From an uncultured Gammaproteobacteria bacterium (GTDB lineage Bacteria > Patescibacteriota > Patescibacteriia > Patescibacteriales > UBA12465): 33,956 nucleotides of DNA. The stretch lies in assembly GCA_964416495.1 (NCBI GenBank), contig CAYQEI010000003.1:1-33956 (forward strand), written 5' to 3'. The position numbers were made by a program, and so were the translations under genes. Below, piece after piece: positions 8,157-33,956 of this stretch (positions within the stretch are counted from its first letter, which is position 1; each line of letters starts with the position of its first letter). The notes under the pieces were generated by a model. It saw nothing but the letters and a program-made list of their open reading frames with translations, did no database searches and was not told where the DNA came from.

Positions 8157-8164
8157 ATGAATTA

Positions 8165-8733: not shown

Positions 8734-8780
8734 AAGTTATAAAAGCAAGACAAGTCTAAACGATTAATTTCTCTAAAACA

Positions 8781-8810: not shown

Positions 8811-8838
8811 TTACTAATCAATTCAAATTTTAGTTAGC

Positions 8839-9264: not shown

Positions 9265-9344
9265 ATTCTACTGTTTAAATTGGTTTAGTTTTTATATTAA
9301 TTGATAAAAAAACTAAGCTAATTGATTATTTATTTTCTAACTTA

Positions 9345-9353
9345 ATTATAGCA
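9345..9353 (-). promoter_or_regulatory. Extended -10 box TGCTATAAT for pilin paralog 2
   Basis: Reverse complement of attatagca in the 112-nt pilC-pilin spacer. The leader contains a 9-bp hairpin (9285-9316). Confidence 0.5.
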
Positions 9354-9376
9354 AATTAGCAAAATTGAGACAAGAG

Positions 9377-10582: not shown

Positions 10583-10591
10583 AAGCGATTA

Positions 10592-12352: not shown

Positions 12353-12365
12353 CACTAATGAAATT

Positions 12366-12674: not shown

Positions 12675-12696
12675 ACTAAATTAAAGTTTAAATAAA

Positions 12697-13275: not shown

Positions 13276-13280
13276 ATAAC

Positions 13281-13970: not shown

Positions 13971-13973
13971 AAT

Positions 13974-16510: not shown

Positions 16511-17146
16511 ATGATTACTAAATTCTTACTTGATTTGATCTTCCCAATTCGTTGTTTAGCTTGCAATCGGATCAGTAAAAATTATCTCTGCCCCCATTGC
16601 TTCCCCCAACTTAACTTCATTGGCAAGGTTAAAGGAAAAAAGCTTGCTAACATTGATGAGCTCCTAGCGGTTTTAAGCTATCGCGATGATTTAGCTAAAC
16701 TCCTTATCAAAACCTATAAATTCAAATCTATTCAGGGCATTGCCTATGTCTTAGCTGAGTACCTACGTATTTTCTGGCAAAGTCGAAGCTTACTTCAACC
16801 AGCTGAGCTCATAGTTATTCCTATCCCCTGCTCAACCCAACGAATCCGGGAGCGGGGTTTTAGTCAAGTGAAACTAATCAGTCAGTTGTTTGCTAACCAA
16901 TTTAACTACCAACATCTGACTCAACTAAAGCGCCATAATCGCAAGAGTCAAACTAAGCTAGGAGCAAAGAAAAGACAAACTAATCCCAAAAATAGCTTTT
17001 ATTGGATTGGACCTAAACTAGAAAATGCAACTGTATTACTAATAGATGATATTGTTACCACTGGAGCAACACTGACAACCGCTAGTGCTGTCTTGCGTCA
17101 AGCTGGGGCGACAAAAATCATTGCTTTAGCGCTCTTTAGGGCCTAA
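16511..17146 (+). CDS. comF: ComF family protein (ComFC-type, phosphoribosyltransferase fold)
   Basis: N-terminal Cys4 (CLAC...CPHC) and PRTase motif VLLIDDIVTTGATL. ~210 aa. Confidence 0.85.
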   Translation: MITKFLLDLIFPIRCLACNRISKNYLCPHCFPQLNFIGKVKGKKLANIDELLAVLSYRDDLAKLLIKTYKFKSIQGIAYVLAEYLRIFWQSRSLLQPAELIVIPIPCSTQRIRERGFSQVKLISQLFANQFNYQHLTQLKRHNRKSQTKLGAKKRQTNPKNSFYWIGPKLENATVLLIDDIVTTGATLTTASAVLRQAGATKIIALALFRA

Positions 17147-19223: not shown

Positions 19224-19257
19224 AAAAAAGCTAGCCTAAAAAAGCTAGCTTTTTTTA
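19224..19257. terminator. Bidirectional rho-independent terminator between convergent thrS and the 71-aa ORF
   Basis: AAAAAAGCTAGC-loop-GCTAGCTTTTTTT: stem AGCTAGC/GCTAGCT flanked by an A-run and a T-run. Confidence 0.7.
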
Positions 19258-19277: not shown

Positions 19278-19493
19278 CTAGACACTATCTTCTTGGCTCA
19301 AGCTCAACCTAATTCTTTCAACTAACTCCAAAGCTGAAATGTTTTCTTGATAATCAGCATTAACATCATCAGCGATGAGTTTGAGTTGCTCTAAACTCTC
19401 TACTGTCCCCTCTTGTGCTAGTGCCTGGAGATAGTCAAAATTGGGCTGGCCATTTTCATTTAACCAAGTAGCGATATTATTATTCTCCTTCAT
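19278..19493 (-). CDS. Small acidic hypothetical protein (71 aa)
   Basis: ORF with an ATG start. Helical, Asp/Glu-rich, no TM helix. No family recognised. Confidence 0.4.
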   Translation of the reverse strand: MKENNNIATWLNENGQPNFDYLQALAQEGTVESLEQLKLIADDVNADYQENISALELVERIRLSLSQEDSV

Positions 19494-19559: not shown

Positions 19560-20243
19560 TTAGTAGTCTTGGTAACCAGGGAACCAATCTTTCTTAATAT
19601 GATCACTTTCTAAACCTAGATCAACTAAGGTCTGATTAACTGCCTCCACCATTGGCTCAGGTCCAGAAATATAGACTTGAGCAGTTTTGAGGTTAGGTAA
19701 GGAGTCTTGTAAAACCTGGCTATTGACTTGCTCAGGGCTAATTAAATACTGCAATGATAGTTGGGGGTATTTTTGGGCAATCACTTCAAATTCAGCCTGA
19801 AAAGGAATTTCAGAGCTAGAATTAGCGAATAATAGGTGAATTTTGGGGAAATCACCTTGCTTGGCTAAATCATTAATGATTGCGCGAAATGGAGTAATAC
19901 CAATACCACCGGCAATAAAAATATATTCTTTACTCAAGTCAGTTACTACGAAATCACCTCCTAGCTCACTCACTTCAACTTCACTCCCTAGCTCTAAGTC
20001 AGCTAAAGCCTGCTTGAAGCTACTACCAGGATTTGAGTAACGTGTACTTAACTGAACTACTCCCTCACTTGGAGCAGAGGCAATGGTAAACCAACGCTCC
20101 TCTCCCCTGCTATCAGGATTGGCATGGGGTAGCTTATAGTGTATATATTGCCCTGCTTGCCAATTTTTTAACTCATCAGAGGTAAAATAAAAAGATTTTA
20201 CCGTACTAGTTTCTGCCTGTTTTTTTATTAGTTTTATTATCAT
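19560..20243 (-). CDS. Ferredoxin-NADP reductase-like FAD/NAD(P)-binding oxidoreductase
   Basis: RWFTIASAP (RxYS-type FAD motif) and GGIGITPF (NAD(P)-binding motif). ~227 aa, two-domain FNR architecture. Confidence 0.7.
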   Translation of the reverse strand: MIIKLIKKQAETSTVKSFYFTSDELKNWQAGQYIHYKLPHANPDSRGEERWFTIASAPSEGVVQLSTRYSNPGSSFKQALADLELGSEVEVSELGGDFVVTDLSKEYIFIAGGIGITPFRAIINDLAKQGDFPKIHLLFANSSSEIPFQAEFEVIAQKYPQLSLQYLISPEQVNSQVLQDSLPNLKTAQVYISGPEPMVEAVNQTLVDLGLESDHIKKDWFPGYQDY

Positions 20244-20244: not shown

Positions 20245-21600
20245 TTATTTTTTATTTAAAATTGTTAATAATTGATTAATGTCGGTAATTTTTGTTAGCT
20301 TCATCGTCTTATTCTTGACTACTACATCTGGGATGAATGCTTCACGGAAACCAAGTCGTTCCCCCTCCTTTAGTCGTTCTTCTAGGCGAACAACATTCCT
20401 AATCTCTCCACCCAAACCTAACTCCCCTAAAAACAAAAGGTCACGCTTAATCTCTTGGTTTAGGTAAGAAGAAATTATAGCGCTAGTTGCTGCTAAGTCC
20501 AAAGCCGGATCTGATACTCTCAAACCGCCAGCAACATTGAGTAAGATGTCTTGATTGAGGAGATTTATTTTTGTGCGCTTGGAAATAACAGCGCTAATTA
20601 CCGCTAGACGACTGAGTTCAAAGCCACTAGTTTTACGTTGCGGGTAGCCAAAAACAGTAGTTGAAACTAAGGCTTGCAAATCAATGATAAAAGGACGGCT
20701 CCCCTCTAAAATACAACCAAGGGCTGAGCCTGAGCTAGCTTTATTTTTGTCATCAATAAATATCTCACTCGGGTTACTAACCGGAATAAAGCCTTGAGCA
20801 GTCATTTGCAAAATACCAAGCTCATTAACAGAGCCAAATCTGTTTTTCGTAGCCCGTAGTAGTGAGTAATTGTAATTAGGCTCTGATTCAAGTAGGAGTA
20901 CAGTATCAACCATATGTTCTAATGATTTCGGTCCAGCTACTTGACCATCTTTAGTAATGTGGCCAATTAAAATAACTGTGATATTGTTTTCTTTAGCTAA
21001 AGTCAGTAATTGGGCAGTAACAGCTTTAATTTGACTGACACCACCGCTATCAAGACTTAACTGACTAGAATAAACAGTCTGAACAGAATCAATAATCAAC
21101 AATTCTGGTTGCTCTTTTTTCGCAGAAGCAATAATTTTTTCAATATTAGTGTCAGCGATGAATTTAAGGCGAGATAGATCACTAGCTAAACGTTCAAATC
21201 TATTTTTTACTTGCAGGGCTGATTCTTCCCCACTAGCATAAAGGACACTATTTTTAGTTTTGATACTGGTGGCTAACTGGGCCGCTAGAGTTGATTTACC
21301 AATTCCAGGTTCGCCACTTAACAAAACAAAAGATCCAAGCACTAAACCACCTCCCAACACGCGATCAAATTCAGGATTGCCTGTTTCTCTTCTTTGCCAA
21401 GTACTGCTCTTTATTTTTTCTAAATCAACTACGGTAGCAGGCTTAATTTGTCCCAACTTCTTTGCTTGGCTTTCTCTGGCATCTAAAATCTCTTCAGCAA
21501 TAGTTCCCCAAGAGCCACACTCTAAACAACGCCCACTCCACTTAAGGGATTGGGCGCCACAATGTGAACAAGAAAAAATAGTTTTGGGACCTGACTTCAT
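20245..21600 (-). CDS. radA: DNA repair / recombination protein RadA (Sms)
   Basis: N-terminal zinc finger CSHCGAQSLKWSGRCLECGSWGT, Walker A GEPGIGKSTL, KNRFG motif, Lon-like C-terminal domain. Confidence 0.92.
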   Translation of the reverse strand: MKSGPKTIFSCSHCGAQSLKWSGRCLECGSWGTIAEEILDARESQAKKLGQIKPATVVDLEKIKSSTWQRRETGNPEFDRVLGGGLVLGSFVLLSGEPGIGKSTLAAQLATSIKTKNSVLYASGEESALQVKNRFERLASDLSRLKFIADTNIEKIIASAKKEQPELLIIDSVQTVYSSQLSLDSGGVSQIKAVTAQLLTLAKENNITVILIGHITKDGQVAGPKSLEHMVDTVLLLESEPNYNYSLLRATKNRFGSVNELGILQMTAQGFIPVSNPSEIFIDDKNKASSGSALGCILEGSRPFIIDLQALVSTTVFGYPQRKTSGFELSRLAVISAVISKRTKINLLNQDILLNVAGGLRVSDPALDLAATSAIISSYLNQEIKRDLLFLGELGLGGEIRNVVRLEERLKEGERLGFREAFIPDVVVKNKTMKLTKITDINQLLTILNKK

Positions 21601-21620
21601 AGGCTATCTTGATTACTAAC

Positions 21621-22250
21621 TTATCTCTCTAACCAGAAAGCACTATCGACTAGCCAATTATTATTTTGCTTAACCATACTTATCTCTATATCTTGCTGAT
21701 AGGACTGGGCATCAAAATTAGCACTTTCTTCTACCCGCATGGTTTTGAGTGTAACTTTGGCTGAGTTAGAGTCAAAGCTAGAAACATTACTTTGAATTAC
21801 TTTAGTAGTGATGCCATAGTAGCTCTCGGTAGCTGGTTGACTGGCTCTTAGCTCACTGACATAATTTTGTGCCCAAGTCTTCATCTTGCTGGTCATCATG
21901 ATCATGATGTCAGAAAAGTTACTGTAATTGGAATAATTAGAATAGGAGCCAAAGCGCTCAACAAAGGCACTAGCTAATTTAGAGACGTCTTCTTGATTAG
22001 TTTGATGAGGCGCTTCTTTGCTAATATCATAATTACTTTCATCACTAGGCTTGTTACTGGTACTAATATTTGGCTCAGGCAAAATTCCACCACTACCATC
22101 AGGTAAGCGACCATCACCTATCTCTTGTCCATCACCCAAATCACCTGGCTCAGGAACTGGTTTTTGGATGAAAAACATATAAATTGCCAAAACTAAAATT
22201 ACTAAACCTAGTAAAATTATGAGTAAAGCTAATATCCTTCTATTTTTCAT
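21621..22250 (-). CDS. N-terminally anchored extracytoplasmic protein; candidate VirB8-position (NTF2-like?) component
   Basis: TM helix ILALLIILLGLVILVLAIYMFFI, Pro/Gly/Asp linker with GDGRLP, ~130-aa globular domain ending NNNWLVDSAFW. Directly downstream of VirB4. The fold assignment is inference only. Confidence 0.4.
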   Translation of the reverse strand: MKNRRILALLIILLGLVILVLAIYMFFIQKPVPEPGDLGDGQEIGDGRLPDGSGGILPEPNISTSNKPSDESNYDISKEAPHQTNQEDVSKLASAFVERFGSYSNYSNYSNFSDIMIMMTSKMKTWAQNYVSELRASQPATESYYGITTKVIQSNVSSFDSNSAKVTLKTMRVEESANFDAQSYQQDIEISMVKQNNNWLVDSAFWLER

Positions 22251-22258
22251 ATGATTAT

Positions 22259-22267
22259 ATTATAGCA
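22259..22267 (-). promoter_or_regulatory. Extended -10 box TGCTATAAT; near-leaderless start for 21621..22250 (and radA downstream)
   Basis: Minus strand reads TGCTATAAT-ATAATCAT-ATG, with 8 nt between the -10 hexamer and ATG 22250. Confidence 0.45.
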
Positions 22268-22279
22268 AAACTTATCTCT

Positions 22280-24175
22280 TTATTCCACTGCTTCGCCTTC
22301 TCTGAGGCTAGCTTCAAATTCTCGCTTAGCTTCCTCAATTTCAAGCAATTGGCGGGGGTCAGAAGTGATGAGCTGGTCTTCGGTATAAGAAGCGACTACT
22401 TTCATCGCCACATGTTTATTGCCGGCAAAGAAAATTCCTTCACCAACCCCACATTCCAGTAACAGATAGCGCTCTCCTTCGGTTAGGAGGAAGGTCTTTT
22501 GAACTAAATCAATTGCTGCTGCGGATTGTTTGAGTAAAATCTGCATTGCTGAATTAGTTACTATTGCTTGACCATAGGGTGAGTGCAGGAAGTCGTTAAC
22601 ATCTTGAGTAATAGTCGTTACCCCTAAATAATATTTACGACAGCGCTTTACTAGAGCAAAAATAAACTTAGCACTATCTTCGTGTTGCATCATCCACCAA
22701 GCTTCATCAATAACCAATACCCTCTTTTTCATCTGGCTTCTAACAATATTCCAAATATAGTTAATGATGGTATAGATAGCAATTGGTCTGAGCTCATCTT
22801 CTAGGTCTCTAACTGAGAAACAAACTAGCTGATTATTCATCTCAACATTAGTTGGCGAATTAATTAAACCAGCAAAAGTGCCTTTGGTGTACTTACGCAA
22901 ACGCTGAGCTAGCTCATTACCACCTTCCATTCCTTCCAAAACTTGCTCCAAATCTGCCATCACTGGTGGCTCAATCTGTGATAGATCGGTATCTGGAGTA
23001 ATGTCTTTTTTGGCATAGGTCTCTAGTAAAGCCCTGTCCATAATTGAATCTTCATCATAGGTCATATTTCCTATCATCAAGCGGATTAGGCCCTTGAGGG
23101 TGATAACCGCACTACGTATTATATCTTTGGGACGAGATTCACCGCCAACTGAACTAGGCAGATCAAAGGGATTAATTTTATTATCACTAGATAATGAGAT
23201 ATTGATATAGGTACCACCAACTGCTTCTGCTAAATACTTGTATTCATACTCCGGGTCTATCACTATCACATCTGTCCCCAGCATCAATGACCGGAGAATT
23301 TCAAGCTTAATTGCATAGCTTTTACCAGCACCTGAAGTAGCAAAAACAACTGAGTTAGCGTTAAAGAGGGTGAAGCGATCAAATAAAATGAGGCTATTGT
23401 TATGGCGATTAATGCCATAGAGTACCCCACGGTCACTACTTAGCTCACTAGAAATAAAAGGAAAAGATGAGGCAATCGGAGACGAATTCATATTGAAAGC
23501 AATGTAGAGCTCATCATTACCTAAAGGCATAGTTGAGTTAAAGCCCTGCTCAGCTTGATAATAGACTCGCTTTGAATAAACTAAACGAGAGCCAAACAGA
23601 TCCTCAACTTGGTCTGAAATCCGATTGAGGTCCTCTAAATTATCGGCATAGAGAGTGATGTAGAGAGCAAACTGGAAGAACTTCTCTATCCCTTGGGTAA
23701 GGGCATCTCGCAGGTATTCAATATCCCGCAAGGCTGTTTCTCTAATTGGATCACGCGCAGCTCCTTTTTCAGCATCAGCGATGATTTGAGCCTCTAAATT
23801 ACCCACTCTATTTTTTAGTTGTTTTAAGATAATCGCACTTGAGACGGGATAGAAGAACATGGAAATATCAAAGGTAAGGTTGAGATTAATTATCGGAGCA
23901 AACCAGCCAACTGATATATAACGCGGATAATTAATTACAAAGACTGTCCGTAAAAAACTATTACCTAAGCGAAGGTAATTAGCCTCTACTTTAATACTAG
24001 CAGGGGCAATAATATCTTTTACCGATAGTATTCCACGACGTAAGGCTAATTCTTCCTCAATTATTTCTCGAGTCATCTCAGGGTCAGCTTCAACATAATC
24101 TTGGGCTGGTCTAGCGCCACCCACCCGGCTGGATAAATCTATTCTATTTTTTTCTTCTTTTTTGAAATCAATCAT
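22280..24175 (-). CDS. virB4: VirB4/TraE/ConE-family type IV secretion ATPase (core and ATPase domains)
   Basis: Walker A ATSGAGKSY (nt 23318-23341), Walker B VLVIDEAWWMM, upstream region DIIAPASIKVEANYLRLGNSFLRTVFVINYPRYISVGW typical of Gram-positive VirB4 homologs. Confidence 0.85.
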   Translation of the reverse strand: MIDFKKEEKNRIDLSSRVGGARPAQDYVEADPEMTREIIEEELALRRGILSVKDIIAPASIKVEANYLRLGNSFLRTVFVINYPRYISVGWFAPIINLNLTFDISMFFYPVSSAIILKQLKNRVGNLEAQIIADAEKGAARDPIRETALRDIEYLRDALTQGIEKFFQFALYITLYADNLEDLNRISDQVEDLFGSRLVYSKRVYYQAEQGFNSTMPLGNDELYIAFNMNSSPIASSFPFISSELSSDRGVLYGINRHNNSLILFDRFTLFNANSVVFATSGAGKSYAIKLEILRSLMLGTDVIVIDPEYEYKYLAEAVGGTYINISLSSDNKINPFDLPSSVGGESRPKDIIRSAVITLKGLIRLMIGNMTYDEDSIMDRALLETYAKKDITPDTDLSQIEPPVMADLEQVLEGMEGGNELAQRLRKYTKGTFAGLINSPTNVEMNNQLVCFSVRDLEDELRPIAIYTIINYIWNIVRSQMKKRVLVIDEAWWMMQHEDSAKFIFALVKRCRKYYLGVTTITQDVNDFLHSPYGQAIVTNSAMQILLKQSAAAIDLVQKTFLLTEGERYLLLECGVGEGIFFAGNKHVAMKVVASYTEDQLITSDPRQLLEIEEAKREFEASLREGEAVE

Positions 24176-24178
24176 AAA

Positions 24179-24865
24179 TTAAATTATATTATCACCAACT
24201 CGTAACTGCTCAATATCTACTAGAGGTTGGTTCTTGGCCGTTTCTGGGTTATAGGTTTTGTAATAGAGCTCAATTAAACTTTGAGTATCAAGACGGGCTA
24301 CTGAAACTCCCATTGACTCTAGTCCACCAATGACGCTACCTAAACGACGGTTGAGCATTTCTTGATAGCGATTAAAAGTCTTATCTTTCAGCTTTATCAC
24401 CGTAGCTGGCCGCATTGCTTCTTTAACTAAACTAAAGAAGTTCTTTTGTTTGTCAGTTAAAGGGTCATAGGGGACGATAACGAAGAAATATTTGGTCATA
24501 ATCCGACCAATAGAAGTTAGCTCTTTAATATACTGGATGTAATCACTAGTTTGGAGTTTGAGTAATTTATTAGTTTGCTCCTTTTCTTTTTCTTGCAAGA
24601 AGTTAAGGTAATTATCAATGTTTAGTTCCCGAGATTGGATGACGATTTGTAGTGAGAAGCTAAGGTTATTAAGGAAGCTAACATAAGAGCTAATTACGGC
24701 GTTTTGCTCTTCTTCACTTTTTAGGGCAAAGTTAATGCTAGAGACCATTAAAACTGCTCGTAAAGTTCCGTCTTTGAGAATGACAGTATCTTCTTTAATC
24801 TCAGCAATATCTAAGTACTGCTGAGTTGAAACTGATCCTTTACCTTTTGCTTGTCCTTTAGCCAT
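24179..24865 (-). CDS. Soluble protein resembling the extreme N-terminal domain of Tn916 Orf16/ConE-type VirB4; same frame as the VirB4 ORF
   Basis: STQQYLDIAEIKEDTVILKDGTLRAVLMVSSINFALKSEEEQNAVISSYVSFLNNL...IVIQSRELNID follows the pattern I recall for VirB4 N-termini. It ends with a single TAA (24179-24181), then TTT, then ATG 24175 in the same frame. Confidence 0.5.
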   Translation of the reverse strand: MAKGQAKGKGSVSTQQYLDIAEIKEDTVILKDGTLRAVLMVSSINFALKSEEEQNAVISSYVSFLNNLSFSLQIVIQSRELNIDNYLNFLQEKEKEQTNKLLKLQTSDYIQYIKELTSIGRIMTKYFFVIVPYDPLTDKQKNFFSLVKEAMRPATVIKLKDKTFNRYQEMLNRRLGSVIGGLESMGVSVARLDTQSLIELYYKTYNPETAKNQPLVDIEQLRVGDNII

Positions 24866-24867
24866 AT

Positions 24868-25290
24868 TTATTCACCTTTATATTTACCTTTTGTATCAAC
24901 AATCAAGGCCACCTCAGCTAAACGCGATTGTTGATAGTATTCTTTTTTCTCGATCTCAGTCCCAGTTTTAATTGGGGCAATAACTGCCTCCTGAGCCTCT
25001 TTTATTTCCGAGCCATGATCCCAAACACGTAAGTTAGCTCGTCTTAGTGTCTGGAGGATGTTTAGGATGAAGAAATGAAAGGGGCGACCATTGATTTTTA
25101 CGAAAGCAAACAAAACTGCAATTATCAAAATTATTACTCCAATTATTAAAAACGAAGTAAAGTCTAATAAGCGATAGCAGAGAGCAATTGAAAGGGCAGC
25201 TACCAAAAGTATCACGAATTGGCGGGTGGTAACCGGCCCAATGATCTTGCTCTCAACATCAATAAATTGTGGTACGGTAAACTGCTGCAT
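24868..25290 (-). CDS. PrgI-family / VirB3-like small membrane protein
   Basis: MQQFTVPQFIDVESKIIGPVTTRQFVILLVAALSIAL plus a second TM helix is the PrgI-type N-terminus. Positioned upstream of VirB4, as in Gram-positive T4SSs. Confidence 0.65.
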   Translation of the reverse strand: MQQFTVPQFIDVESKIIGPVTTRQFVILLVAALSIALCYRLLDFTSFLIIGVIILIIAVLFAFVKINGRPFHFFILNILQTLRRANLRVWDHGSEIKEAQEAVIAPIKTGTEIEKKEYYQQSRLAEVALIVDTKGKYKGE

Positions 25291-25291
25291 A

Positions 25292-26770
25292 TTAAAAAGT
25301 TAAACGACTATTTAAGTCTATAATAGCCTCTATTTCCGCTAAACTCAAATTGGTCTCAGACTCTCCTTCACTGATTGCTTCCTTAACTGTCTTCCCTTTA
25401 GCCATTGCTCTTTGCACATTAGCTAAATAGAGACGATTAACTGGACTTTTCTTCCAAGCGCCAATTGCTTCTATCATCTTACCATAGCCACTTTTTTCTA
25501 ATAACTTTATTTTCTGAAATATCTTAGTTGTTCTCTCTGCCGGAGTCTTACCTAAACGCCTGAAATTAATAATATCAAGGTAAAGCAACTCTTCAATCGG
25601 GCCCATTACTTTTGGACTTGGCTTAACATCTTGAATCTTTTGCCGACGACTATCGCCTGGTCGCGGTGCTGGACTCATTCGTTTTGGTGCTGGCGCCACT
25701 GGCTCTGCTTTAACAATATTTTCTCGGCTCGGTTTAGTTGCAACTTCTGTTTTCTTTTCTTCCTTTACAGGAGCTGGGCTAACTGCCTGAGAACCTAATT
25801 CTTGAGCAAATTGAATCGAACCTTTAGTCGCTTTATCAGATCCAGCAAAGAAACCTCTAAACAAACCCCTTTTCTCTGGCGGAGTGATAGTTTGCTCTGG
25901 TGGTCTAACAGCCTTCTTAGTTTGAGCTGACTCTTCCCCCATACTTGGCTCCGGTTTCACTAGCTCTGGTTCTTTAATCGGAGTAGAGCTCTCTGTCTTA
26001 GCTGGGACTAGCTCTTCCTCTGTTAGCTGAGCCTCAAGGGCTGATAACTCTTCTTCAATAGCAACTGCCTCTGGCTTTAGCCCCTCCTTGCTAGCCTCAG
26101 TCTCAACTGGTGCTGTCAGTGGAGTTAATGTCGGTGAGCTAATTTTTTTAGTTTCTCCCGATGCTAGAGCTTGCTTGAGATCATAGCCTGGCTCAATCCT
26201 TAACTCTGGCTTTAGACTTGGGCTTTGCGTTGATTGAGTTTGTTTCTGTTGATGATATTGATAACGATCACTCACTTTGAAAACTCGATCTATTTCCTCA
26301 GCTGATAATTCTAAACCACCCTTATCAATACTTTTAGCTAAAGCCTCTCTGGTATCTATTTTTCGTCTGACTCCTTTAATATAGGTTAGTAGTAGGCGGC
26401 GTAAACGCTCAACCAATTCAGTGCTAGCTAAGCTTAACCCCGCTTCTTTAATTACAGCCTCAATATTGTCAGTTGGGTCACCTTTTTTCGGGCTTAGACC
26501 TACATAATCTGCAACTTTAGAGAAGAATTTAGTTTTAAGGTCAGTGGCTAAACGCTGGGCTTTCTCTGCCCCTAAGCCTAACTCACTAATCAAAACTGAC
26601 TCAAGATCTGAGGCAGCTAAGCTCTTTATCATCACCCGCATGATTATCATCGCCAAATCAACTTGATAATCAGTCTCAAGTTGAGTCAATAAAGCCATCG
26701 CCTCAGGTGATGAGACCTTAGCTTTAATTTCAGTGGGTAGAGTCTTAAATTTTTGTAAATAATCAAACAT
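25292..26770 (-). CDS. Hypothetical soluble protein: N-terminal helical LPxxI module, long Pro/Glu/Lys-rich disordered centre, small helical C-terminal domain
   Basis: No TM helix or signal peptide. N-terminus MFDYLQKFKTLPTEIKAKVSSPEAMALL.... Low-complexity centre at about nt 25615-26260. Translationally coupled to the PrgI-like gene (1-nt gap). Confidence 0.6.
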   Translation of the reverse strand: MFDYLQKFKTLPTEIKAKVSSPEAMALLTQLETDYQVDLAMIIMRVMIKSLAASDLESVLISELGLGAEKAQRLATDLKTKFFSKVADYVGLSPKKGDPTDNIEAVIKEAGLSLASTELVERLRRLLLTYIKGVRRKIDTREALAKSIDKGGLELSAEEIDRVFKVSDRYQYHQQKQTQSTQSPSLKPELRIEPGYDLKQALASGETKKISSPTLTPLTAPVETEASKEGLKPEAVAIEEELSALEAQLTEEELVPAKTESSTPIKEPELVKPEPSMGEESAQTKKAVRPPEQTITPPEKRGLFRGFFAGSDKATKGSIQFAQELGSQAVSPAPVKEEKKTEVATKPSRENIVKAEPVAPAPKRMSPAPRPGDSRRQKIQDVKPSPKVMGPIEELLYLDIINFRRLGKTPAERTTKIFQKIKLLEKSGYGKMIEAIGAWKKSPVNRLYLANVQRAMAKGKTVKEAISEGESETNLSLAEIEAIIDLNSRLTF

Positions 26771-26813
26771 TAGCAGGTCTCAATTTAAGTAAAATATCCT
26801 ATCTGTAATTCTA

Positions 26814-26822
26814 ATTTTATCA
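26814..26822 (-). promoter_or_regulatory. Candidate extended -10 box TGATAAAAT for the 25292..26770-to-VirB4 transcription unit
   Basis: Reverse complement of attttatca, 43 nt upstream of ATG 26770 in the only sizeable spacer of the locus. Confidence 0.35.
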
Positions 26823-26885
26823 TATTCTTGATAAAAATGAAAAATAGATCATTCTTTATTCTCTAATAAATCAATCCTTCCCCTC

Positions 26886-26926
26886 TAAAGATAAAAGGAA
26901 AAAGCTAAACTAGATAGCTCTTCCTT
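26886..26926 (-). terminator. Candidate intrinsic terminator after 26949..28253
   Basis: Minus strand AAGGAAgAGCTA-loop-TAGCTttTTCCTT followed by TTATCTTT. The stem is interrupted. Confidence 0.4.
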
Positions 26927-26948
26927 AAGTAAGTTCGTACCAATCAAA

Positions 26949-28253
26949 TTAATTCTTTTTCTCCTTTTCTAAGCGTCTAATTTCCTGAGCAATCGTTTTA
27001 TACTCTAAAGATTCGACTGAGTAATCTCGTTGAATTAGCTTTAACTCCTCAACTAAACTACTTCTCTTCTCCGCTGGCTTAAACTCCACTTTAGCTTCTT
27101 GCTTTACCGGCTCTTGTCTCTTTGCTACCGGTTTGACTGGCTCTGTCACTGGATTAACTTGGCTTAAGGGTTTTTGAATTGGTGCCTCTGACCTTGCCGG
27201 TACGGGTGGCTTTGGCGCTGGTGGGGGAGTGCTGGCAACTGGGGCCTGACTAGCTCCTTGCTTAGCTTGGAAAGGGGAGGAAAGGACTTCAAAGTTCTCC
27301 GGTACTTTATTAGCACCAGTGGTAAGATAAAAATCAAGTCGATTGATATTATTATTAAATTTCAAAATGCGTAAAGCCAAAACTCTATCTGCTTCACTAA
27401 GTTTAGCCAAAGTTTTATTGGAAATAAATTCAGCAATATTTAGGTCCGAGCCCTCTAAACCATAGTTTTTGATAAAGCTCCTCAATAAGTTCTCAACTGT
27501 ACTGGCAATCTCTTGCCCACCAGAGACTAATTTTTCTTTAGAAAATTGTTCTTTATTATTTAAAAGCGTAGTCGCAATAGTGTCATGGAATTCTTGGTCT
27601 TTAATCCAAAGTAAAACAAAATGATAATTGAAATCATCAAGGTCCTCTTGTTGAGTTGAGTTAAGTAGTGCTATCAAACCCTCTTTTACTATAGTATTTA
27701 GCTCTTTTTTCTTTTCAGCTAACTCGTTAGCCTCATCTTCTTGAGAAAAGATTTCATCTAAATCTAGCTCTAGTTCAGTGTCTGCTAAAACATCAGTAAT
27801 CGAAGAAAATAATTCTTCTGCCTCCTTCTCCGCTTGGGCTTCGCCAGCTAAATAATCTTGCTCTTTTGCAATTGCTTCTTTTTGCTCAGCAATCACAGCA
27901 GCGAAACGACTTAAATCAACATTATGTTGCTTGAGATAATTACTAGCCTGACCGGAAAGCCAATCATCCATTATCAATAAACGAGCGCCAACTAATTGAA
28001 TTGCTAAACTAAGAGCTTTATCAGGAGCGGTTTGTAGTAAATCAGTAATCCTTTTTTCAAAACCAGTTATTTCAACTTCTTTTACCATCGCTCCTGCCAC
28101 TAAGTTAGCTAAAGGACCAATTAAATTACGATCCACATTAGCTACGTTAAATAGCTCTAAATTAATGTCTACTCCTTTAAGGGAGAAAGCATAGGAGCGG
28201 ATTGGCTCAGGCAGACTATTTAACTTGTTGTAGAGGTCTTTGATTTCTAACAT
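26949..28253 (-). CDS. Hypothetical soluble protein, paralogous in architecture to 25292..26770 (helical LPxxI N-module, acidic helical middle, Pro-rich tract, short helical C-terminus)
   Basis: MLEIKDLYNKLNSLPEPIRSYAFS.... Pro-rich tract APVASTPPPAPKPPVPARSEAPIQKP at about nt 27053-27263. No TM helix. Confidence 0.6.
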   Translation of the reverse strand: MLEIKDLYNKLNSLPEPIRSYAFSLKGVDINLELFNVANVDRNLIGPLANLVAGAMVKEVEITGFEKRITDLLQTAPDKALSLAIQLVGARLLIMDDWLSGQASNYLKQHNVDLSRFAAVIAEQKEAIAKEQDYLAGEAQAEKEAEELFSSITDVLADTELELDLDEIFSQEDEANELAEKKKELNTIVKEGLIALLNSTQQEDLDDFNYHFVLLWIKDQEFHDTIATTLLNNKEQFSKEKLVSGGQEIASTVENLLRSFIKNYGLEGSDLNIAEFISNKTLAKLSEADRVLALRILKFNNNINRLDFYLTTGANKVPENFEVLSSPFQAKQGASQAPVASTPPPAPKPPVPARSEAPIQKPLSQVNPVTEPVKPVAKRQEPVKQEAKVEFKPAEKRSSLVEELKLIQRDYSVESLEYKTIAQEIRRLEKEKKN

Positions 28254-28262
28254 AATAACTTA

Positions 28263-30731
28263 TTAATAATTTGCTAAAGCTGGGTTAGCATTAATTGCAG
28301 TTACTTTCCTTGTAAATGCACTCCGCTCACTAGCAGTCCAATTTGGATCAACTCCTAAACTCAAAATTACATCACGAATTTCTCTCACTAATTCTGGATT
28401 AGCACCATCTATCATCATGCTGTTTAATTGTCCTGCACTAATATTCTTCGCTACCATGTCTCGTAATACTGGTTGAGAAATATACGTGTCTTTATCCATT
28501 CTGTTTAAGTCTTTAGCTCTGGCCTGATTAATGTAAAGCTTGATGTTACTCTCCATTGCTCCAGGATCATGACTGAAAGCCTCTCCCCAGTCACCATAGG
28601 AATTAGCTATGATACTGGCATACCTGTTAGCCTGAGCACTATTTCCAGCTGTCTGCTCATCATCACGTCTACTCTCAAGTGCTGAGCGGTAGTTATTGTG
28701 TGCCGCCTGAGGTCTACCATCAAGAGTCTTGTTCATAACTGCCTCAAAATTATTACCAAATCTATTTTCCATTACTGACAAGAAGCCTTGTTGAGCAAAA
28801 GTTTCATCACTGATCTTGCCCAAATCAATCTTGCCTGTACGTAGAGCTTTCTCAAAGTCATCTCGGCCTACCTCAGTATCAAAATCATAATTGAAATGAG
28901 GTTGCTTAGCATCTATCTCCGCTTTTAGTTTTGCTCTAGATAATGGATTACGGTTAAAGACCTGCTTGAGCTCATCAACTTCATCTTTAGTCCTGAAAGC
29001 GGCCTTGCTAGCTTTGATTAAGCCTAGAGCCATCTTGTCTACAGTTGAAGTAGCGGCACTACTAAGCTTGCGATCAATTTCACCTCTACTCAAATCCATT
29101 GCTGTGTATTTAGCTTTAGCTTCTTCAACCTTCTTTTCATGTTCAGCTAAATTCTTAGCCTTATTCCCGCGATAATTAGATTGATAGGAATCATAAGTCG
29201 CTGCCCCCCAAGCACTCATCTTCTTTACTTCATTGCCATCGGCATCTCTAATAGCAGCGCCAAAACCTGTTCTTGTGCCAGAAGCATCCCTGGTAACCTC
29301 TTTGATAACCTTGCCATCTAAACCATATTCCCTACCCTGATAAGTTGTAGTGGCGGTGGAATCACCTTTAGTTGCCTCAAAAAGATCACGTTGTAGATTC
29401 TTTATACCAGCCTCTTCTTCACTCTTAGGAGCACCAAGGGAAACTCGATCTTTTACTCCCTGATAGAAATCTTTTACTTGACCAGCATGAGTACCAAATA
29501 AACCTTTATCAGAATAAATTGCTTCCCCTCCAGCCCTAACTATCTGTTTATCAATAGTATGGCCAAGAGTTCGATCAATTGAGCCAGCAACATGGCCGGC
29601 GCCCCTGCCTACTGCCTTGCCACCCTGCTTTGCCTTTGCTAAAGCAAAACCGCCAACAGCACCACCAGCTACTAAGCCAGCTGACTTTAGCTTACCCGAT
29701 GCCTTGCCCAGAGCTTGACCTGCAGCCCCACCAACTTCCTGCGCTATCTTCATACCACCAATTAACATGGCAATAGAAATGATAAACTTCATCATTGTTT
29801 CACTAGTAGTGTAGCCTTCCATTTGTTGCTCACCCTCAAGGTCTACTCCATCAGTGCTATTGACCTCATCAATCTTGAAGGCAGATAAGGTCTTATCTTC
29901 ATTAGTGCTAGGATTGCCTAAAGTCGCAAAAGATAACCAAACGAAGAACGCTAAAATCGGCCCAATAACTAAATTCTTAGTAAACTCTGTCCACCATTTT
30001 TTGGAGTAATTTTCTCCACCAGGAAAAGAGGCAAGTAGGTAAGCTAAAGGTGAGAGCACTACATACACCCAAATCATCACTAAACGCATAACTAGCATTA
30101 CCACCATGCTCAAAACAGTCACTAAGGCAATTAAAGCATAGAGTAAAGCTAGGAAATAGGCAGCTAGGACTCCCCAGCCACTGACTTCAGTACCAGTAAA
30201 ATCTTTCATTTTCTGCCATTCCTGGATCCCCAACATTTGAGTGAGGCTACCAGCGCCAATTTTGGAAAAGCTACCAACGAATGTCAACATTACGACTTGG
30301 GCGACATCTATTAATAGGCCACAAATTGTTTTGGAGAAGTTAATCAAAATTGCCATTAACACTAGACGAGGTAGCCATTTTTTGTAATTGTATTTCTCTT
30401 GTTGCAAGATTGTCGCTAAAGCAATAACTAAAAGAATAACGATAAAGAACATATTGGCGACATCGCGTACTACTCGCCAACCATAGGCTATTACTGGGGC
30501 ATTGGTAAAATCATTGTAGTTGACAACAGCCATAAAAATCCCCATCACCTTCGCTAAAATCCAGCCAATAATGGAGACTAGGGTTTTAACTAAACCGCCA
30601 ACAAGAATATGGGCCCAGCCTGCTTTTGCAAAAGCTATCTGTGGTAATGCTAAAAACAAAGTAGCCCCTACTACTGTCACCCAAATAATCGTTTTTTTCT
30701 GCTTACCGATTTGTTTTAGTATCTTTTTCAT
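28263..30731 (-). CDS. VirB6/TrbL/PrgH-like polytopic membrane protein with ~420-aa hydrophilic C-terminal domain of unknown function
   Basis: Signal-like N-terminus ...LALPQIAFAKAGW, then at least 6 hydrophobic helices (aa ~40-340, e.g. MFFIVILLVIALATIL, LVLMAILINFSKTICGLLIDVAQVVML), a Gly/Ala-rich segment, then a charged soluble domain. Confidence 0.65.
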   Translation of the reverse strand: MKKILKQIGKQKKTIIWVTVVGATLFLALPQIAFAKAGWAHILVGGLVKTLVSIIGWILAKVMGIFMAVVNYNDFTNAPVIAYGWRVVRDVANMFFIVILLVIALATILQQEKYNYKKWLPRLVLMAILINFSKTICGLLIDVAQVVMLTFVGSFSKIGAGSLTQMLGIQEWQKMKDFTGTEVSGWGVLAAYFLALLYALIALVTVLSMVVMLVMRLVMIWVYVVLSPLAYLLASFPGGENYSKKWWTEFTKNLVIGPILAFFVWLSFATLGNPSTNEDKTLSAFKIDEVNSTDGVDLEGEQQMEGYTTSETMMKFIISIAMLIGGMKIAQEVGGAAGQALGKASGKLKSAGLVAGGAVGGFALAKAKQGGKAVGRGAGHVAGSIDRTLGHTIDKQIVRAGGEAIYSDKGLFGTHAGQVKDFYQGVKDRVSLGAPKSEEEAGIKNLQRDLFEATKGDSTATTTYQGREYGLDGKVIKEVTRDASGTRTGFGAAIRDADGNEVKKMSAWGAATYDSYQSNYRGNKAKNLAEHEKKVEEAKAKYTAMDLSRGEIDRKLSSAATSTVDKMALGLIKASKAAFRTKDEVDELKQVFNRNPLSRAKLKAEIDAKQPHFNYDFDTEVGRDDFEKALRTGKIDLGKISDETFAQQGFLSVMENRFGNNFEAVMNKTLDGRPQAAHNNYRSALESRRDDEQTAGNSAQANRYASIIANSYGDWGEAFSHDPGAMESNIKLYINQARAKDLNRMDKDTYISQPVLRDMVAKNISAGQLNSMMIDGANPELVREIRDVILSLGVDPNWTASERSAFTRKVTAINANPALANY

Positions 30732-30742
30732 AACTTATTTAA

Positions 30743-31231
30743 TTATGACCCTCGAATAAATCTGATAATTGTTCCAGCTGGGCTACTCCAAATAAAGCCC
30801 ATGATTCCTTGGATTATTTCCATTGCCTTTATCGCAATATCTACCATTTTTAGCACTGCTCCAGCAATAGCCATGAGAAATATCAACTGAATTAGACAAC
30901 CTAGAGCTAGACAACCTACCGCCATTTTCTTAATTAATTCACCCTGCCCTCCAACAAACCTATCCTTATGCTTTAGGGCTAAACCAATCGCCCTTAGCCA
31001 AGGAATTTTGGTCTTTTTACCTAACTTATCAACAACATCAACAGCTAAATCTGCCTTTTTTTCCGTTGCTTGCTTTTCCTGGCTACGAGCCTGCAAGACT
31101 GCTTGGTGTAAACTTTCAGGCTCTTGCTCTAAGTAGCTAAACTCCTCCCTTTTGCTTTCCCTTAACTCGCCTGCCCGATCTGAGCTATGAGCACCTCGTC
31201 CTGGTTCTAAAGTGCTATCATCTTGCGCCAT
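30743..31231 (-). CDS. Small membrane protein (charged ~100-aa N-terminus, two C-terminal TM helices)
   Basis: MAVGCLALGCLIQLIFLMAIAGAVL and IIQGIMGFIWSSPAGTII hydrophobic segments. 11-nt gap to the VirB6-like gene. Confidence 0.5.
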   Translation of the reverse strand: MAQDDSTLEPGRGAHSSDRAGELRESKREEFSYLEQEPESLHQAVLQARSQEKQATEKKADLAVDVVDKLGKKTKIPWLRAIGLALKHKDRFVGGQGELIKKMAVGCLALGCLIQLIFLMAIAGAVLKMVDIAIKAMEIIQGIMGFIWSSPAGTIIRFIRGS

Positions 31232-31257
31232 AATCGTTTGTTTATCTTTATCTGTTA

Positions 31258-33956
31258 CTAGAGACTTGCACTTGCCTCAACGAATCCACCCCAATTATCC
31301 CAAATCTGAATTGTGATATTTACAGTACCTGTTTTATTAACATAATAATGATTGAACTTATGAATCATGCTATCTGAGCTAATGCCTGGCTGTGGCTTGT
31401 GATCTACTCCAGTAATTGCCTGACTACTTTCATCGCCCCAATCAATATGAATCATATTCAAAGGTTGCCTATCTTTATCAACCGTAGTGTTAAAGGAAAG
31501 AGCATATACTCCTGAGCCAAAGTTAGGTAAGTCCTGTCCTTTTTTAGCTCTGGCATCGCTAATCCTTGTTAGGGTAATGTTACTTATCTGAGGCCCACTA
31601 GTAGCTGCCATAGTTATAGTAAAGTTACCAGTTGGATCAGGAACGTAACGTCCGTTCCGATAAACAAAGGCTCCGTATGAAGTCCTGAAAATATTACCCA
31701 AAGCATTTTGAGCATCCTCTGGGTATTTCGGAGCTACACTCCAAAGTGGAATACAGGTACCAAAGCCACCATCAGAACAAGATTTGTTATTGATAATCTG
31801 ATATGACTCATCGCCATTTTCTGGGTCTGGATAATAAATACAGAAAGCATTAGTGTTGAGTTCGCAAACACCAACATTGGCGCAAGAATTACCTGAACAA
31901 GCGTAAGGACGACCGGCATAAACAGCTCTTGGGTCTTTCTCATAATACTGGTTACGTAGATAAATTGCTCCACTGTTAACAATATCGTAGTTGGCGTCAA
32001 AGCTAGCAGCGCCATAAGGGGCGTCTAATGCTAGACGGCCATAGCCTTTGAGATTATTGTTAGGGTTCATAAATGGTGGCGTATCATAGGAGTATTCTGG
32101 ATCAGCAGTTACTCCAACCCGACTAGTCCAGGCTTGATTCTCACCAGCGCTAGATACTAATTGGACAAAGTTGCTACAAGAGAAGTTAAAGAGCTTATCC
32201 CTATCTTCTCTATCTGCTGAGATATATTGAAGCCCTTGTTCGTCATAAACTCGATAATCAGGATTATAGACCCTAATAGCTGGGTCAGCATTACCCTGCT
32301 CATCAATTGGTTCACATTTCTCACCGCTACCAGCACAACCTTTAACTGACTCATAATTCATCTTCCCATCATAATAGAACCAGGCATCGCGGTAGAAGGT
32401 CATGTCACAAGAAGAAGCGGTAGCGTTAGCAAAGGCTCCTTGAGCTGTAGTTCTAGCACCGACCCCGAAGACAAGTCCGTCGTCAACGTTTCTCTTATTG
32501 TCATTGGGGACACAGTAGACTTCAGCTGTATTTGAGTCTTCTTGGTTAAGTACTAAGATAGATCGATAGTCACCACTTGTTCCACAATAACTTTCATGGA
32601 GATTTTTATTTGATGTCAACTCTCGACAAGAGCCAGTTGAGGTTCTAATTGGGAGGTTAAATGCATCAGCAACTGATCCGCTAAGTTGCCAATAGCCTGG
32701 TGGCCTTACCGCCTCTGGATCTTCTGGCTCTGGTGGTTCAATGTAGACGAAGGCATTAGATCGGCGCGATATTAATTTCGTGCTTAACTTCCTGACAAAT
32801 TTAATGTTAGAATTAATGTTAGTACAATAGCTCAGCCCACTTCTTTCACTATAACCTAAAGAGGAGCCAGCAAAAGATGAGCTAATCCTATCTGCTGGAT
32901 ACCAAGTAATACAGTTATTTGGATTATCGCGGTCGTACTCAAGACAATAGCCCTCTAAGCCAGTAGTAATAACATTCTTATTATAATCACTACACTCAAA
33001 GCTACCAATATTTGGATATAGGCGACAATCACGTACCGCAAACTCATTTACTCCTTTTTTCAGTACTGGTTCAATTCTAATGTCGTCAAAATAGACTTCT
33101 CCACTAGCACCGCCACTAGAGCTTAGGTAAAGAGAAACTGCGCTATAGTCTGAATTACCAGAAATTATTTTTTCGGTGCCAAAAGGAATTATTTTTCTTT
33201 CCCAACCATGATTAGCACTGGCATACGCCACTACACCGTTAGTGGCATTTTTAGCTTTAATCTCTATCTTCGCTTGAGCTCCACCTGACTTTTCTGTATT
33301 TACTAAGAAGCTCAAGTAATAGTCATGACCAGCCGAAAGGTTAAAGAACTGACCATCGGCTTGAGGGGAAATAATTAAGCCATTAGGTACCTTCAAGAAA
33401 CTCTTTCCTGAAGCTGGGTAATCTACCGGCGACCCTTCTGGCTCACGGACAACAAAGTCGGTAAATGAATAAGAAGCACAAGGTAGGCCACCCGAAGTAC
33501 AAGATATGGCTGGAACTAAATCCTCAAAGTCAAAGTGAGCGTTAGAGTTTAGTCCAACCTCTTGCATCTTAGAAATATTATCTAAACCAGGAATGTAATA
33601 ACCAGTAGCATTAGCTGGGTTATATGTATACTCAGGGTCAACAAAATTAACACATTCACCAAACTCATCAACTGCATTACATTCTTTAAGGTCATAGCAA
33701 ACTTTCTGCCCAGTCTCTTCATCAATGGCATAGGTAGCACAGGATAGCCACATTCCACAAGTTCTATCTGGTCTTACCTTAATTAACTGATTAGTAGCAC
33801 AAGAACCTGGGACTCCGTCATCACAAGTGACCGGTGAAGAGCCTTGACTACTGCGATAAGGGTCAAAGCCTTGGCCAGCTAAATTGGCATAACCACTAGC
33901 TCCAGTAAATGATCTTTCGTTAAACAAGACACAGCCTTGATTGAAATCTAAACGAC
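31258..33956 (-). CDS. Large Cys-rich extracellular protein, C-terminal ~899 aa (N-terminus beyond window end), with jelly-roll/CBM-like and C-terminal PKD-like segments
   Basis: The track start 33927 is a TTG, but the frame remains open to 33956 (...RLDFNQGCV upstream). About 50 Cys residues. CBM-like stretch YYLSFLVNTEKSGGAQAKIEIKA...GEVYFDDIRIEPV. PKD-like stretch IHIDWGDESSQ...HKFNHYY...GTVNITIQIWDNWG. Confidence 0.75.
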   Translation of the reverse strand, partial: RLDFNQGCVLFNERSFTGASGYANLAGQGFDPYRSSQGSSPVTCDDGVPGSCATNQLIKVRPDRTCGMWLSCATYAIDEETGQKVCYDLKECNAVDEFGECVNFVDPEYTYNPANATGYYIPGLDNISKMQEVGLNSNAHFDFEDLVPAISCTSGGLPCASYSFTDFVVREPEGSPVDYPASGKSFLKVPNGLIISPQADGQFFNLSAGHDYYLSFLVNTEKSGGAQAKIEIKAKNATNGVVAYASANHGWERKIIPFGTEKIISGNSDYSAVSLYLSSSGGASGEVYFDDIRIEPVLKKGVNEFAVRDCRLYPNIGSFECSDYNKNVITTGLEGYCLEYDRDNPNNCITWYPADRISSSFAGSSLGYSERSGLSYCTNINSNIKFVRKLSTKLISRRSNAFVYIEPPEPEDPEAVRPPGYWQLSGSVADAFNLPIRTSTGSCRELTSNKNLHESYCGTSGDYRSILVLNQEDSNTAEVYCVPNDNKRNVDDGLVFGVGARTTAQGAFANATASSCDMTFYRDAWFYYDGKMNYESVKGCAGSGEKCEPIDEQGNADPAIRVYNPDYRVYDEQGLQYISADREDRDKLFNFSCSNFVQLVSSAGENQAWTSRVGVTADPEYSYDTPPFMNPNNNLKGYGRLALDAPYGAASFDANYDIVNSGAIYLRNQYYEKDPRAVYAGRPYACSGNSCANVGVCELNTNAFCIYYPDPENGDESYQIINNKSCSDGGFGTCIPLWSVAPKYPEDAQNALGNIFRTSYGAFVYRNGRYVPDPTGNFTITMAATSGPQISNITLTRISDARAKKGQDLPNFGSGVYALSFNTTVDKDRQPLNMIHIDWGDESSQAITGVDHKPQPGISSDSMIHKFNHYYVNKTGTVNITIQIWDNWGGFVEASASL

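Follow-up and report, generated by a model that had tools for sequence, protein, structure and literature searches.

A probable Patescibacteria-clade type IV secretion system of the ABY1/Falkowbacteria lineage with conserved linkage to radA

Introduction

The type IV secretion systems (T4SSs) of Patescibacteria, the Candidate Phyla Radiation (CPR), have been surveyed in 3,035 genomes, which revealed a monophyletic VirB4 clade nested in the mating-pair formation (MPF) class MPF_FATA (Quinonero-Coronel et al. 2025, PMC12102498). This Patescibacteria clade holds 98% of the CPR VirB4s. The systems are chromosomal and TrsD is the commonest partner of VirB4; homologues of PrgI/VirB3 and VirB6 are also present, VirB8 homologues occur almost only in the class ABY1, and ABY1 neighbourhoods contain comF, recG and radA (PMC12102498). 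A VirB2-like pilin gene or array lies near virB4 in 1,135 of ~2,400 genomes and is thus frequent, not universal, while relaxases were found in only 103 of the 3,035 CPR genomes. Neighbours lacking NCBIFAM, Pfam or TIGRFAM homology appear in the main text only as unnamed grey genes in Fig. 6 (PMC12102498). Southlakia epibionticum requires its T4SS genes in order to grow epibiotically, and coupling and relaxase proteins are absent there (Wang et al. 2023, PMC10633639). The function of the Patescibacteria T4SS has been described as unknown; it has been proposed to deliver effectors or to take up molecules of the host (PMC11665869, PMC12857230). Here we analyse a T4SS-like locus on contig CAYQEI010000003.1 of assembly GCA_964416495.1, of which a stretch of 33,956 nt was studied (positions 1 to 33,956, in the following "the window").

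A sequence-only reading of this DNA had interpreted positions 21621-33956 as a chromosomal, repurposed VirB4-driven envelope machine and not as a conjugative element. This interpretation is borne out by the genes flanking the locus, by its base composition, by the lack of mobility genes and by vertical conservation in at least 80 species. With a probability that we put at about 80%, the locus represents the Patescibacteria-clade T4SS in the form that it takes in ABY1/Falkowbacteria, chromosomal, vertically inherited, derived from MPF_FATA and devoid of a relaxase and a coupling protein. Both the type of system and its interpretation are already published (2023-2025). Our additions are modest and comprise a fold-level assignment of VirB8, a domain of ~93 aa shared by the N-termini of two cytoplasmic proteins, a giant protein with a carbohydrate-binding module (CBM) as a recurrent partner, and a quantified synteny with radA.

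Results

The nine open reading frames (ORFs) expected between 21621 and 33956 were confirmed with their boundaries. All lie on the minus strand, and their separation by 29, 3, 2, 1, 178, 9, 11 and 26 nt agrees with the earlier description as co-oriented and, apart from the 178-nt gap, mostly coupled genes. Profile searches with all nine proteins and a synteny check across relatives, both suggested in the sequence-only reading, identified the T4SS parts and a conserved gene order. Four such parts had been recognised by eye. VirB4 and PrgI were confirmed by hidden Markov models (HMMs) and the VirB8-like protein by its fold; for the VirB6-like protein the support is weak but concordant. Together, VirB4, PrgI/VirB3, the VirB6-like and the VirB8-like protein correspond to the standard cytoplasmic-membrane translocon of monoderm T4SSs.

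VirB4 is encoded in two pieces, since a 631-aa protein (22280..24175) and a 228-aa protein (24179..24865), whose gene ends 3 nt upstream of the former, cover complementary parts of the profile NF045971 (conju_CD1110). The 631-aa motor ATPase, with the middle and C-terminal domains, matches profile positions 183-733 of 752 (E 1.2e-105, 354 bits, cut-off 325) and in addition PF19044 (P-loop_TraG, E 4.3e-28), and its Walker A (SGAGKS) and Walker B (VLVIDEAW) motifs read as intact. It is of the monoderm type, as CD1110 (1e-105) and Mbov_0397 (1e-80) match far better than VirB4_CagE (6e-36) and TrbE (~1e-9). The best solved relative is the C-domain of Thermoanaerobacter VirB4 (4ag5, 1.2e-44), whereas the diderm TrwK reached only 8e-5. 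The match to CedB (NF041017) extends over 70 residues with 1e-10, for a profile with a cut-off of 700. The 228-aa protein had rightly been called VirB4-N-like: it is a TrsD/TraD-like N-domain that matches NF041427 (TrsD, E 1.8e-10) and NF045975 at positions 100-249, covers positions 1-155 of the 752 in CD1110 and carries PF26593 (TraC-like) as a precomputed annotation, while a search against the Protein Data Bank (PDB) gave no match. The TrsD-like gene is separate from virB4 in all 78 relatives, where its product is 62-84% identical, and the split of VirB4 is the known TrsD situation. Next to it, a PrgI/VirB3-like protein of 140 aa (24868..25290) has two transmembrane (TM) segments, matches PF12666 (PrgI, E 2.9e-8, 34.6 bits, gathering score 27) and is 48-69% identical in relatives.

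The VirB8-like bitopic protein of 209 aa (21621..22250) has no match to Pfam, NCBIfam or VirB8 HMMs at the sequence level, so that its assignment is one of fold. A model calculated with AlphaFold2 (AF2) from a 66-sequence alignment (mean predicted local distance difference test score, pLDDT, 88.3) consists of a TM helix (residues 2-28), a linker of ~55 aa and an NTF2-like domain (86-206). Among PDB structures, Foldseek placed the VirB8 homologue CagV on top (5e-5), with further matches to the VirB8 domain of PrgL, TraH of pIP501, IcmL-like proteins, TraE, a chain of the inner-membrane complex (IMC) of R388, DotI and TraM. A sequence-based route was also tried: the profile of the 209-aa family gave only chance matches against PDB sequences, and the fold search was needed. 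The TM helix, the NTF2-like domain and the position in a T4SS operon suggest that the protein is VirB8-like.

An extended VirB6-like polytopic protein of 822 aa (28263..30731) is built of a conserved N-terminal part of ~350 aa, with 6 TM segments by hydropathy, and a poorly conserved hydrophilic C-terminal part of ~460 aa. It matches NF046089 (CD3337/EF1877 mobilome membrane protein) with E 1.3e-3, below the cut-off, as do 4 of 25 relatives (best 3e-4, also below the cut-off). One homologue (P0261) gave a sub-threshold match to PF04610 (TrbL/VirB6, 4e-4), and several carry a precomputed PF19590 annotation (TrbL_3, "weak"). In the AF2 model (pLDDT 79.7) the top five PDB matches by Foldseek are all TrwJ/VirB5-TrwI/VirB6 stalk chains of R388, at E 5e-3 to 3e-2. 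Searches of the family against PDB sequences and of 25 members against Pfam returned nothing relevant. Taken together, the sequence and model matches are weak but concordant and point to a VirB6-like protein. The N-domain, searched by tblastn against 72,556 plasmids, gave no match, which argues against a recent plasmid origin.

Relatives were collected by scanning one genome per species, which gave 318. Apart from evident mislabels the best 80 are named Candidatus Falkowbacteria or Patescibacteria, and their VirB4 is 79-89% identical to that of the window. The order 492-like - PrgI - TrsD - VirB4 - VirB8-like - RadA is essentially invariant in the 80 species-level relatives, while the partner proteins of VirB4 are only 26-84% identical, which indicates an old vertical inheritance. 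Among the closest genomes, many bear the name "uncultured Gammaproteobacteria bacterium" in the database, and one is labelled Bacillota, despite typical Falkowbacteria/Patescibacteria T4SS-radA loci; these labels on metagenome-assembled genomes are probably default or wrong taxonomy.

Upstream of this core the loci vary. Among the 54 relatives with full flanks, a VirB6-like gene lies within 10 kb upstream in 35 and the giant protein gene in 18, and PPDK-like genes occupy the site in loci without the upstream membrane and surface genes. The pattern is thus that of an ATPase core from which a membrane/surface module can be separated. In deeper ABY1 relatives the full set is retained (giant CBM protein, VirB6-like, 434-like, 492-like, PrgI, TrsD, VirB4 and VirB8-like), and some of them also have T4SS_pilin genes. 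In one deeper relative (L088, GCA_028711565.1) the reading frame of the VirB4 motor gene at 8126-9981 changes from 2 to 1 (tblastn), so that the gene is called in two parts of 214 aa and 398 aa; either the assembly is wrong here or the gene is a pseudogene.

radA (20245..21600, minus strand, 451 aa; Pfam AAA_25, KaiC, ChlI and Zn_ribbon_LapB) begins 20 nt after the end of the VirB8-like gene. It follows this gene directly and in the same orientation in 66 of 76 relatives, with a median gap of 11 nt, and in nine further ones a single co-oriented gene is inserted between the two, which was DsbA-like in 3 of 3 tested. The genes beyond radA vary between genomes (recG is found in most relatives, ThrRS is among them in the window), and the T4SS-radA adjacency therefore survives rearrangement. 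We conclude that radA is a conserved partner of the T4SS operon and probably co-transcribed with it. The sequence-only reading had the locus abut a housekeeping radA gene; the adjacency holds, but radA is more than a neutral boundary. A second gene, comF (16511..17146, plus strand, 211 aa; TIGR00201 E 2.8e-32, DZR_2 and Pribosyltran), lies 4.5 kb from the T4SS. In deeper ABY1 relatives (L088 and a JGI contig) comF is the gene directly after the VirB8-like one, recG and radA are no more than 8 kb away, and the ComF homologue of L088 is 28% identical (1e-24). recG is not in the window. With radA and the nearby comF as conserved partners, the view that no DNA-processing genes are in sight of the locus does not hold.

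DsbA-like thioredoxin genes (PF13462, down to 2.5e-27) were located at L082:12586-13371, L070:12478-13473, L072:10248-11087 and L087:14028-14750. The insertion is found in a sub-clade of the relatives and fits a need to oxidise a Cys-rich exoprotein.

The window corresponds, in reverse complement, to the final 33,956 bases of a metagenomic contig of 67,207 bp (NODE_447 of ENA ERZ4240871), and locus L001 from this source contig matches window positions 20743-33954 at 100% identity. Genes upstream of the window end were supplied by other assemblies of the same species (L002-L006 among them), with which ~42 kb of the region was seen. The upstream order is LeuRS, KsgA, a TSP3-repeat membrane protein and then the giant exoprotein gene. 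With LeuRS and KsgA upstream and radA downstream, the locus has housekeeping genes on both sides, and these occupy identical positions in independent assemblies. Counting the two upstream genes and radA, the locus comprises 11-12 genes, so that calling it minimal was an understatement. Its GC content (0.39-0.42) overlaps that elsewhere in the window (0.36-0.43), and hence it forms no compositional island.

No domain of a relaxase, a VirD4/TcpA-type coupling protein (T4CP), an integrase or a hydrolase was detected in the window ORFs or in 8 kb upstream in other assemblies. This agrees with what had been noted from the window and answers in part the proposal to look ~20 kb upstream for VirD4, relaxase and hydrolase genes. 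The repeat search returned chance matches and the TSP3 repeats, with no att-like flanking repeats, and Rfam and tRNA scans of the window gave nothing, so that no tRNA integration site is present. The set that would mark an integrative and conjugative element (ICE), namely relaxase, VirD4, integrase and att repeats, was thus not found between LeuRS and the contig end, and a reading as conjugative element is unsupported. VirB9 or VirB10 domains were absent from all window ORFs, as were matches to the VirB2-like pilin families PF18895 and PF04956. A phmmer search with two ABY1 T4SS_pilin proteins against the six-frame translation of the window and 10 kb upstream also found none, although this is a single-sequence search of limited sensitivity.

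The window contains the C-terminal ~899 codons of a giant secreted Cys-rich protein (31258..33956), the gene of which runs past the window end. In other assemblies (L002-L006) the full protein has 2,568 aa, an N-terminal signal/TM segment and 82 Cys (3.2%). A CBM_4_9 domain at residues 669-803 (E 5.7e-7, 30.4 bits, gathering score 25.9) lies outside the window. The protein had been described as a Cys-rich CBM/PKD-like exoprotein; the PKD-like motif lacks Pfam support, and PDB and NCBIfam searches gave no match. Relatives such as L088 (2,635 aa, CBM_4_9) encode a homologue immediately before the VirB6-like gene. The gene directly preceding that of the giant protein encodes the TSP3-repeat membrane protein, 208 aa with a TM segment; TSP3 is a Ca-binding repeat. 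In L001 a scaffold gap of 100 N (~4967-5066) splits the call of the giant gene (1,613 aa); the 2,568-aa ORF is uninterrupted in other assemblies. Compared with five assemblies of the same species, 23 of ~26-36 differences cluster in 200 nt of the giant gene (window 33709-33901), where they turn the peptide SSPVTCDDGVPGSC into SSPIICDPNTTGSC. This patch looks like local recombination or a hypervariable region.

Two cytoplasmic proteins belong to no known family. A Pro/Glu/Lys-rich protein of 492 aa (25292..26770) is encoded immediately upstream of PrgI, where a 492-like gene is found in 79 of 80 relatives, and an acidic protein of 434 aa (26949..28253) has a homologue in L088 (hmmsearch 1.6e-15). 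Neither has a Pfam or NCBIfam match or a TM segment. Both have long disordered regions, and their middle parts are rich in acidic residues, Lys and Pro. In the 492-aa family residues 1-160 and 380-492 are conserved and the middle is variable; its 312 homologues are all annotated as hypothetical, none with a Pfam domain, and an exhaustive search of representatives gave 2,263 clusters at E<=1e-3 with members of 450-650 aa. The two had been taken for paralogs. Over the whole length this was rejected, since BLASTP between them is not significant, but the families share an N-terminal domain of ~93 aa (hhalign 98.7%, E 1.5e-16, residues 4-102), for which four control families were negative.

The small membrane protein of 162 aa (30743..31231) is lineage-specific, with a hydrophilic N-terminal part of ~100 aa followed by a C-terminal TM segment, and has no Pfam or NCBIfam match. 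It had been read as a 2-TM protein. A Kyte-Doolittle scan gave a single strong TM segment here (104-122), while the positional family from 21 relatives has two, together with an N-terminal M-x-[ILV]-D-E-x-L-L motif and 25% column identity. It was considered as VirB2 and rejected, as it has no HMM or T4SS_pilin match, a long cytoplasmic-looking N-terminus and no signal peptide.

The 178-nt stretch at 26771..26948 is the sole long gap of the locus. On the minus strand it contains terminator-like hairpins (26924-26898 and 26904-26876) and a promoter-like site (26843-26814), all consensus matches only. It is possibly an internal terminator/promoter that divides the surface/membrane module from the ATPase module. 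At the other end, an FNR-like FAD/NAD(P)-binding reductase of 227 aa (19560-20243, minus strand; PF00175 and flavin reductase-type NCBIfam matches) starts 1 nt after radA. It is followed by an acidic ORF of 71 aa (19278-19493, minus strand) and a strong bidirectional hairpin terminator with a 14-bp stem (19224-19255). The segment 19224..20243 is probably the tail of the T4SS-radA transcription unit. In the ten loci mapped, other genes follow radA in the relatives. Since the reductase and the 71-aa ORF are not syntenic, they are probably not functional parts of the T4SS.

Further along the window, a complete type IV pilus (T4P) cluster (3036-15032, minus strand) encodes five N_methyl prepilins, a 496-aa Ig-like protein, PilC (T2SSF), PilB (T2SSE and MshEN), PilM and two small proteins in PilN/O position, with YbeY and a FemAB-family gene inserted mid-cluster. 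T4P, comF, radA and T4SS are therefore all located within 34 kb. Between the T4P cluster and comF, a 426-aa protein (15120-16400, plus strand) has an N-terminal TM-like segment and weak matches to TolB/PD40 beta-propellers. At 1-3010 (minus strand), the pilin genes are closely followed by an ORF that continues past the contig end and encodes at least 990 aa. An N-terminal signal/TM segment is combined in its product with numerous GNVGIG(T/L)TNPxxKL(H/D)VxG repeats, which suggests a fibre-like surface protein. The plus-strand ORFs listed at the same positions are antisense shadows of the repeats.

Discussion

The assignment to the Patescibacteria-clade T4SS brings together a monoderm-type VirB4 split from its TrsD-like N-domain, PrgI/VirB3, a VirB8-like protein and the invariant gene order that ends in radA. 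Several points weigh against it or against parts of it. We infer membership of the Patescibacteria VirB4 clade from taxonomy and partners. The absence of a T4CP and a relaxase holds for the ~42 kb of genome seen, and VirD4 homologues lie far from virB4 in many CPR genomes according to the literature. The locus yielded neither a VirB2-like pilin nor a VirB1-like hydrolase, in contrast to Saccharimonadia and to some of the ABY1 relatives (L087, L088). The VirB6 assignment is based on sub-threshold matches (E 1e-3 to 4e-4; Foldseek E 5e-3, TM-score 0.27-0.52), and non-T4SS NTF2 folds such as ARC6 and the CaMKII hub match the 209-aa model nearly as well and are interleaved with the VirB8s. For the giant protein, which carries a Sec signal of its own, the gene is adjacent in only 18 of the 54 relatives with full flanks, so that the protein may simply be a neighbour and not a T4SS part. 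As for the cargo, what we propose below is drawn from gene linkage, and in Southlakia the competence gene comEC is dispensable, the T4SS is essential, and the T4SS has no obvious DNA-handling partners.

In the mechanism that we propose, a split VirB4 hexamer docked by VirB3 would power a channel of VirB6 and VirB8. The giant CBM and TSP3 proteins would form or anchor an extracellular part in contact with the host wall, and the two cytoplasmic proteins could serve as scaffold or substrate adaptors in place of the coupling protein that is missing. Such a machine would transfer a macromolecule between epibiont and host. We tentatively favour nucleic acid as the cargo, with uptake likelier than export, because radA, comF and recG are persistently linked to the T4SS across ABY1, although we would give this choice less than even odds. 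A full version of the model, in which the ABY1 T4SS is a relaxase- and coupling-protein-independent importer that hands host DNA or RNA via VirB6/VirB8 to ComF, RadA and RecG, with the pair sharing the N-domain as a new adaptor in place of VirD4 and the 2,568-aa CBM protein as outer part binding the host wall, is speculative and rather unlikely to be correct in all its components.

Export of protein effectors into the host bacterium for manipulation or permeabilisation, with radA a mere conserved neighbour, is a serious rival to nucleic-acid transfer. It was favoured for Southlakia because coupling and relaxase proteins are missing there (PMC10633639), a view repeated in PMC11665869, and protein exporters without a T4CP do exist, such as Ptl and the Brucella VirB system (PMC12102498). 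The two conserved cytoplasmic proteins with their long disordered regions could then be adaptors or substrates. Yet the locus contains no candidate effector, toxin or immunity gene, and effector export leaves the tight, rearrangement-resistant linkage to radA, comF and recG in ABY1 unexplained; we consider it unlikely on balance, while taking it seriously. More doubtful still is a machine without cargo, in which the VirB4 module would build or anchor an adhesive pilus or a giant-adhesin complex. The giant Cys-rich CBM protein and the TSP3 protein are indeed encoded in one run of genes on the same strand, and in a sub-clade the operon contains an inserted DsbA-like gene. CPR T4SS loci commonly encode VirB2-like pilins, and structures that are possibly T4SS pili were seen by cryo-EM in another Patescibacterium. 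However, the window and the 10 kb upstream of it contain no detectable VirB2-like pilin. The giant protein is furnished with a Sec signal, two thirds of the relatives with full flanks do not encode it near the locus, and a separate T4P cluster for adhesion and motility is already present in the window.

That the locus is an ordinary or decaying ICE of the Gram-positive type, with its relaxase, coupling protein and integrase beyond the sequence seen, is very improbable. The best VirB4 HMM match is to the conjugal-transfer family CD1110, while TrsD, PrgI and the CD3337/EF1877-like protein also belong to families of conjugation elements, and only ~42 kb were inspected. An ICE is difficult to reconcile with housekeeping flanks at identical positions in independent assemblies, with intact ORFs throughout and neither a compositional break nor att-like repeats, and with the scarcity of relaxases in CPR genomes (103 of 3,035; PMC12102498). 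It would also have to account for the same order in 80 species with VirB4 79-89% identical and its neighbours only 26-66%, which is the pattern of old, vertically inherited core genes.

In the single species examined so far, the Patescibacteria T4SS is essential for epibiotic life. What it moves, and in which direction, is a recognised question that this locus from an uncultured organism does not answer. Still, a machine tied to radA in Falkowbacteria/ABY1, and to comF and recG in deeper relatives, offers a comparative handle on DNA handling versus effector export. The unannotated partners, i.e. the 492-aa family, its relative by the N-domain and the giant CBM protein, are concrete targets for modelling and genetics.

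Known T4SSs outside Patescibacteria resemble the locus in part. Archaeal Ced/Ted DNA import (PMC12102498) likewise combines an ATPase of VirB4/HerA type with VirB6-like polytopic and small membrane proteins and no relaxase, and it depends on type IV pili nearby; a T4P cluster shares the window here. The VirB4 of the locus is, however, clearly of the bacterial CD1110 type, with only the 70-residue match to CedB. ComB of Helicobacter pylori is a T4SS that feeds competence and recombination independently of a relaxase and a T4CP (PMC11665869), and by analogy the linkage to radA, comF and recG suggests a comparable role for the locus. ComB differs in being a diderm system of the MPF_T type with VirB7/9/10, and no sequence relationship exists beyond VirB4. 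The MPF_FATA systems (Trs of pGO1, Tra of pIP501, Prg/Pcf of pCF10, CD1110 of CTn2) share with the locus a VirB4 above the CD1110 cut-off, TrsD, PrgI, a putative VirB6 analogue of the CD3337/EF1877 type and an NTF2-fold, VirB8-like protein that matches PrgL and TraH. Unlike these conjugation systems, the locus lacks a relaxase, a T4CP (PcfC/TraJ), a hydrolase (PrgK/TraG), an oriT and a PrgB-type adhesin, and it is not on a mobile element but vertically conserved in an operon with radA.

The Patescibacteria-clade T4SS (PMC12102498), including the Southlakia cluster (SEML1_0006-0019, PMC10633639), is likewise chromosomal, without a relaxase or an adjacent T4CP, and has a VirB4 of the Gram-positive type, a separate TrsD-like gene and PrgI/VirB3; a VirB6-like protein is a probable further common part. 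In the Southlakia cluster a VirB2-like pilin array and a VirB1-like hydrolase or peptidase are both essential, whereas neither was detected at this locus. With the ABY1 systems in particular the locus shares a VirB8-like protein and the comF/radA neighbourhood. The texts of these papers do not describe its giant CBM protein, its TSP3 protein or the cytoplasmic pair that has an N-domain in common.

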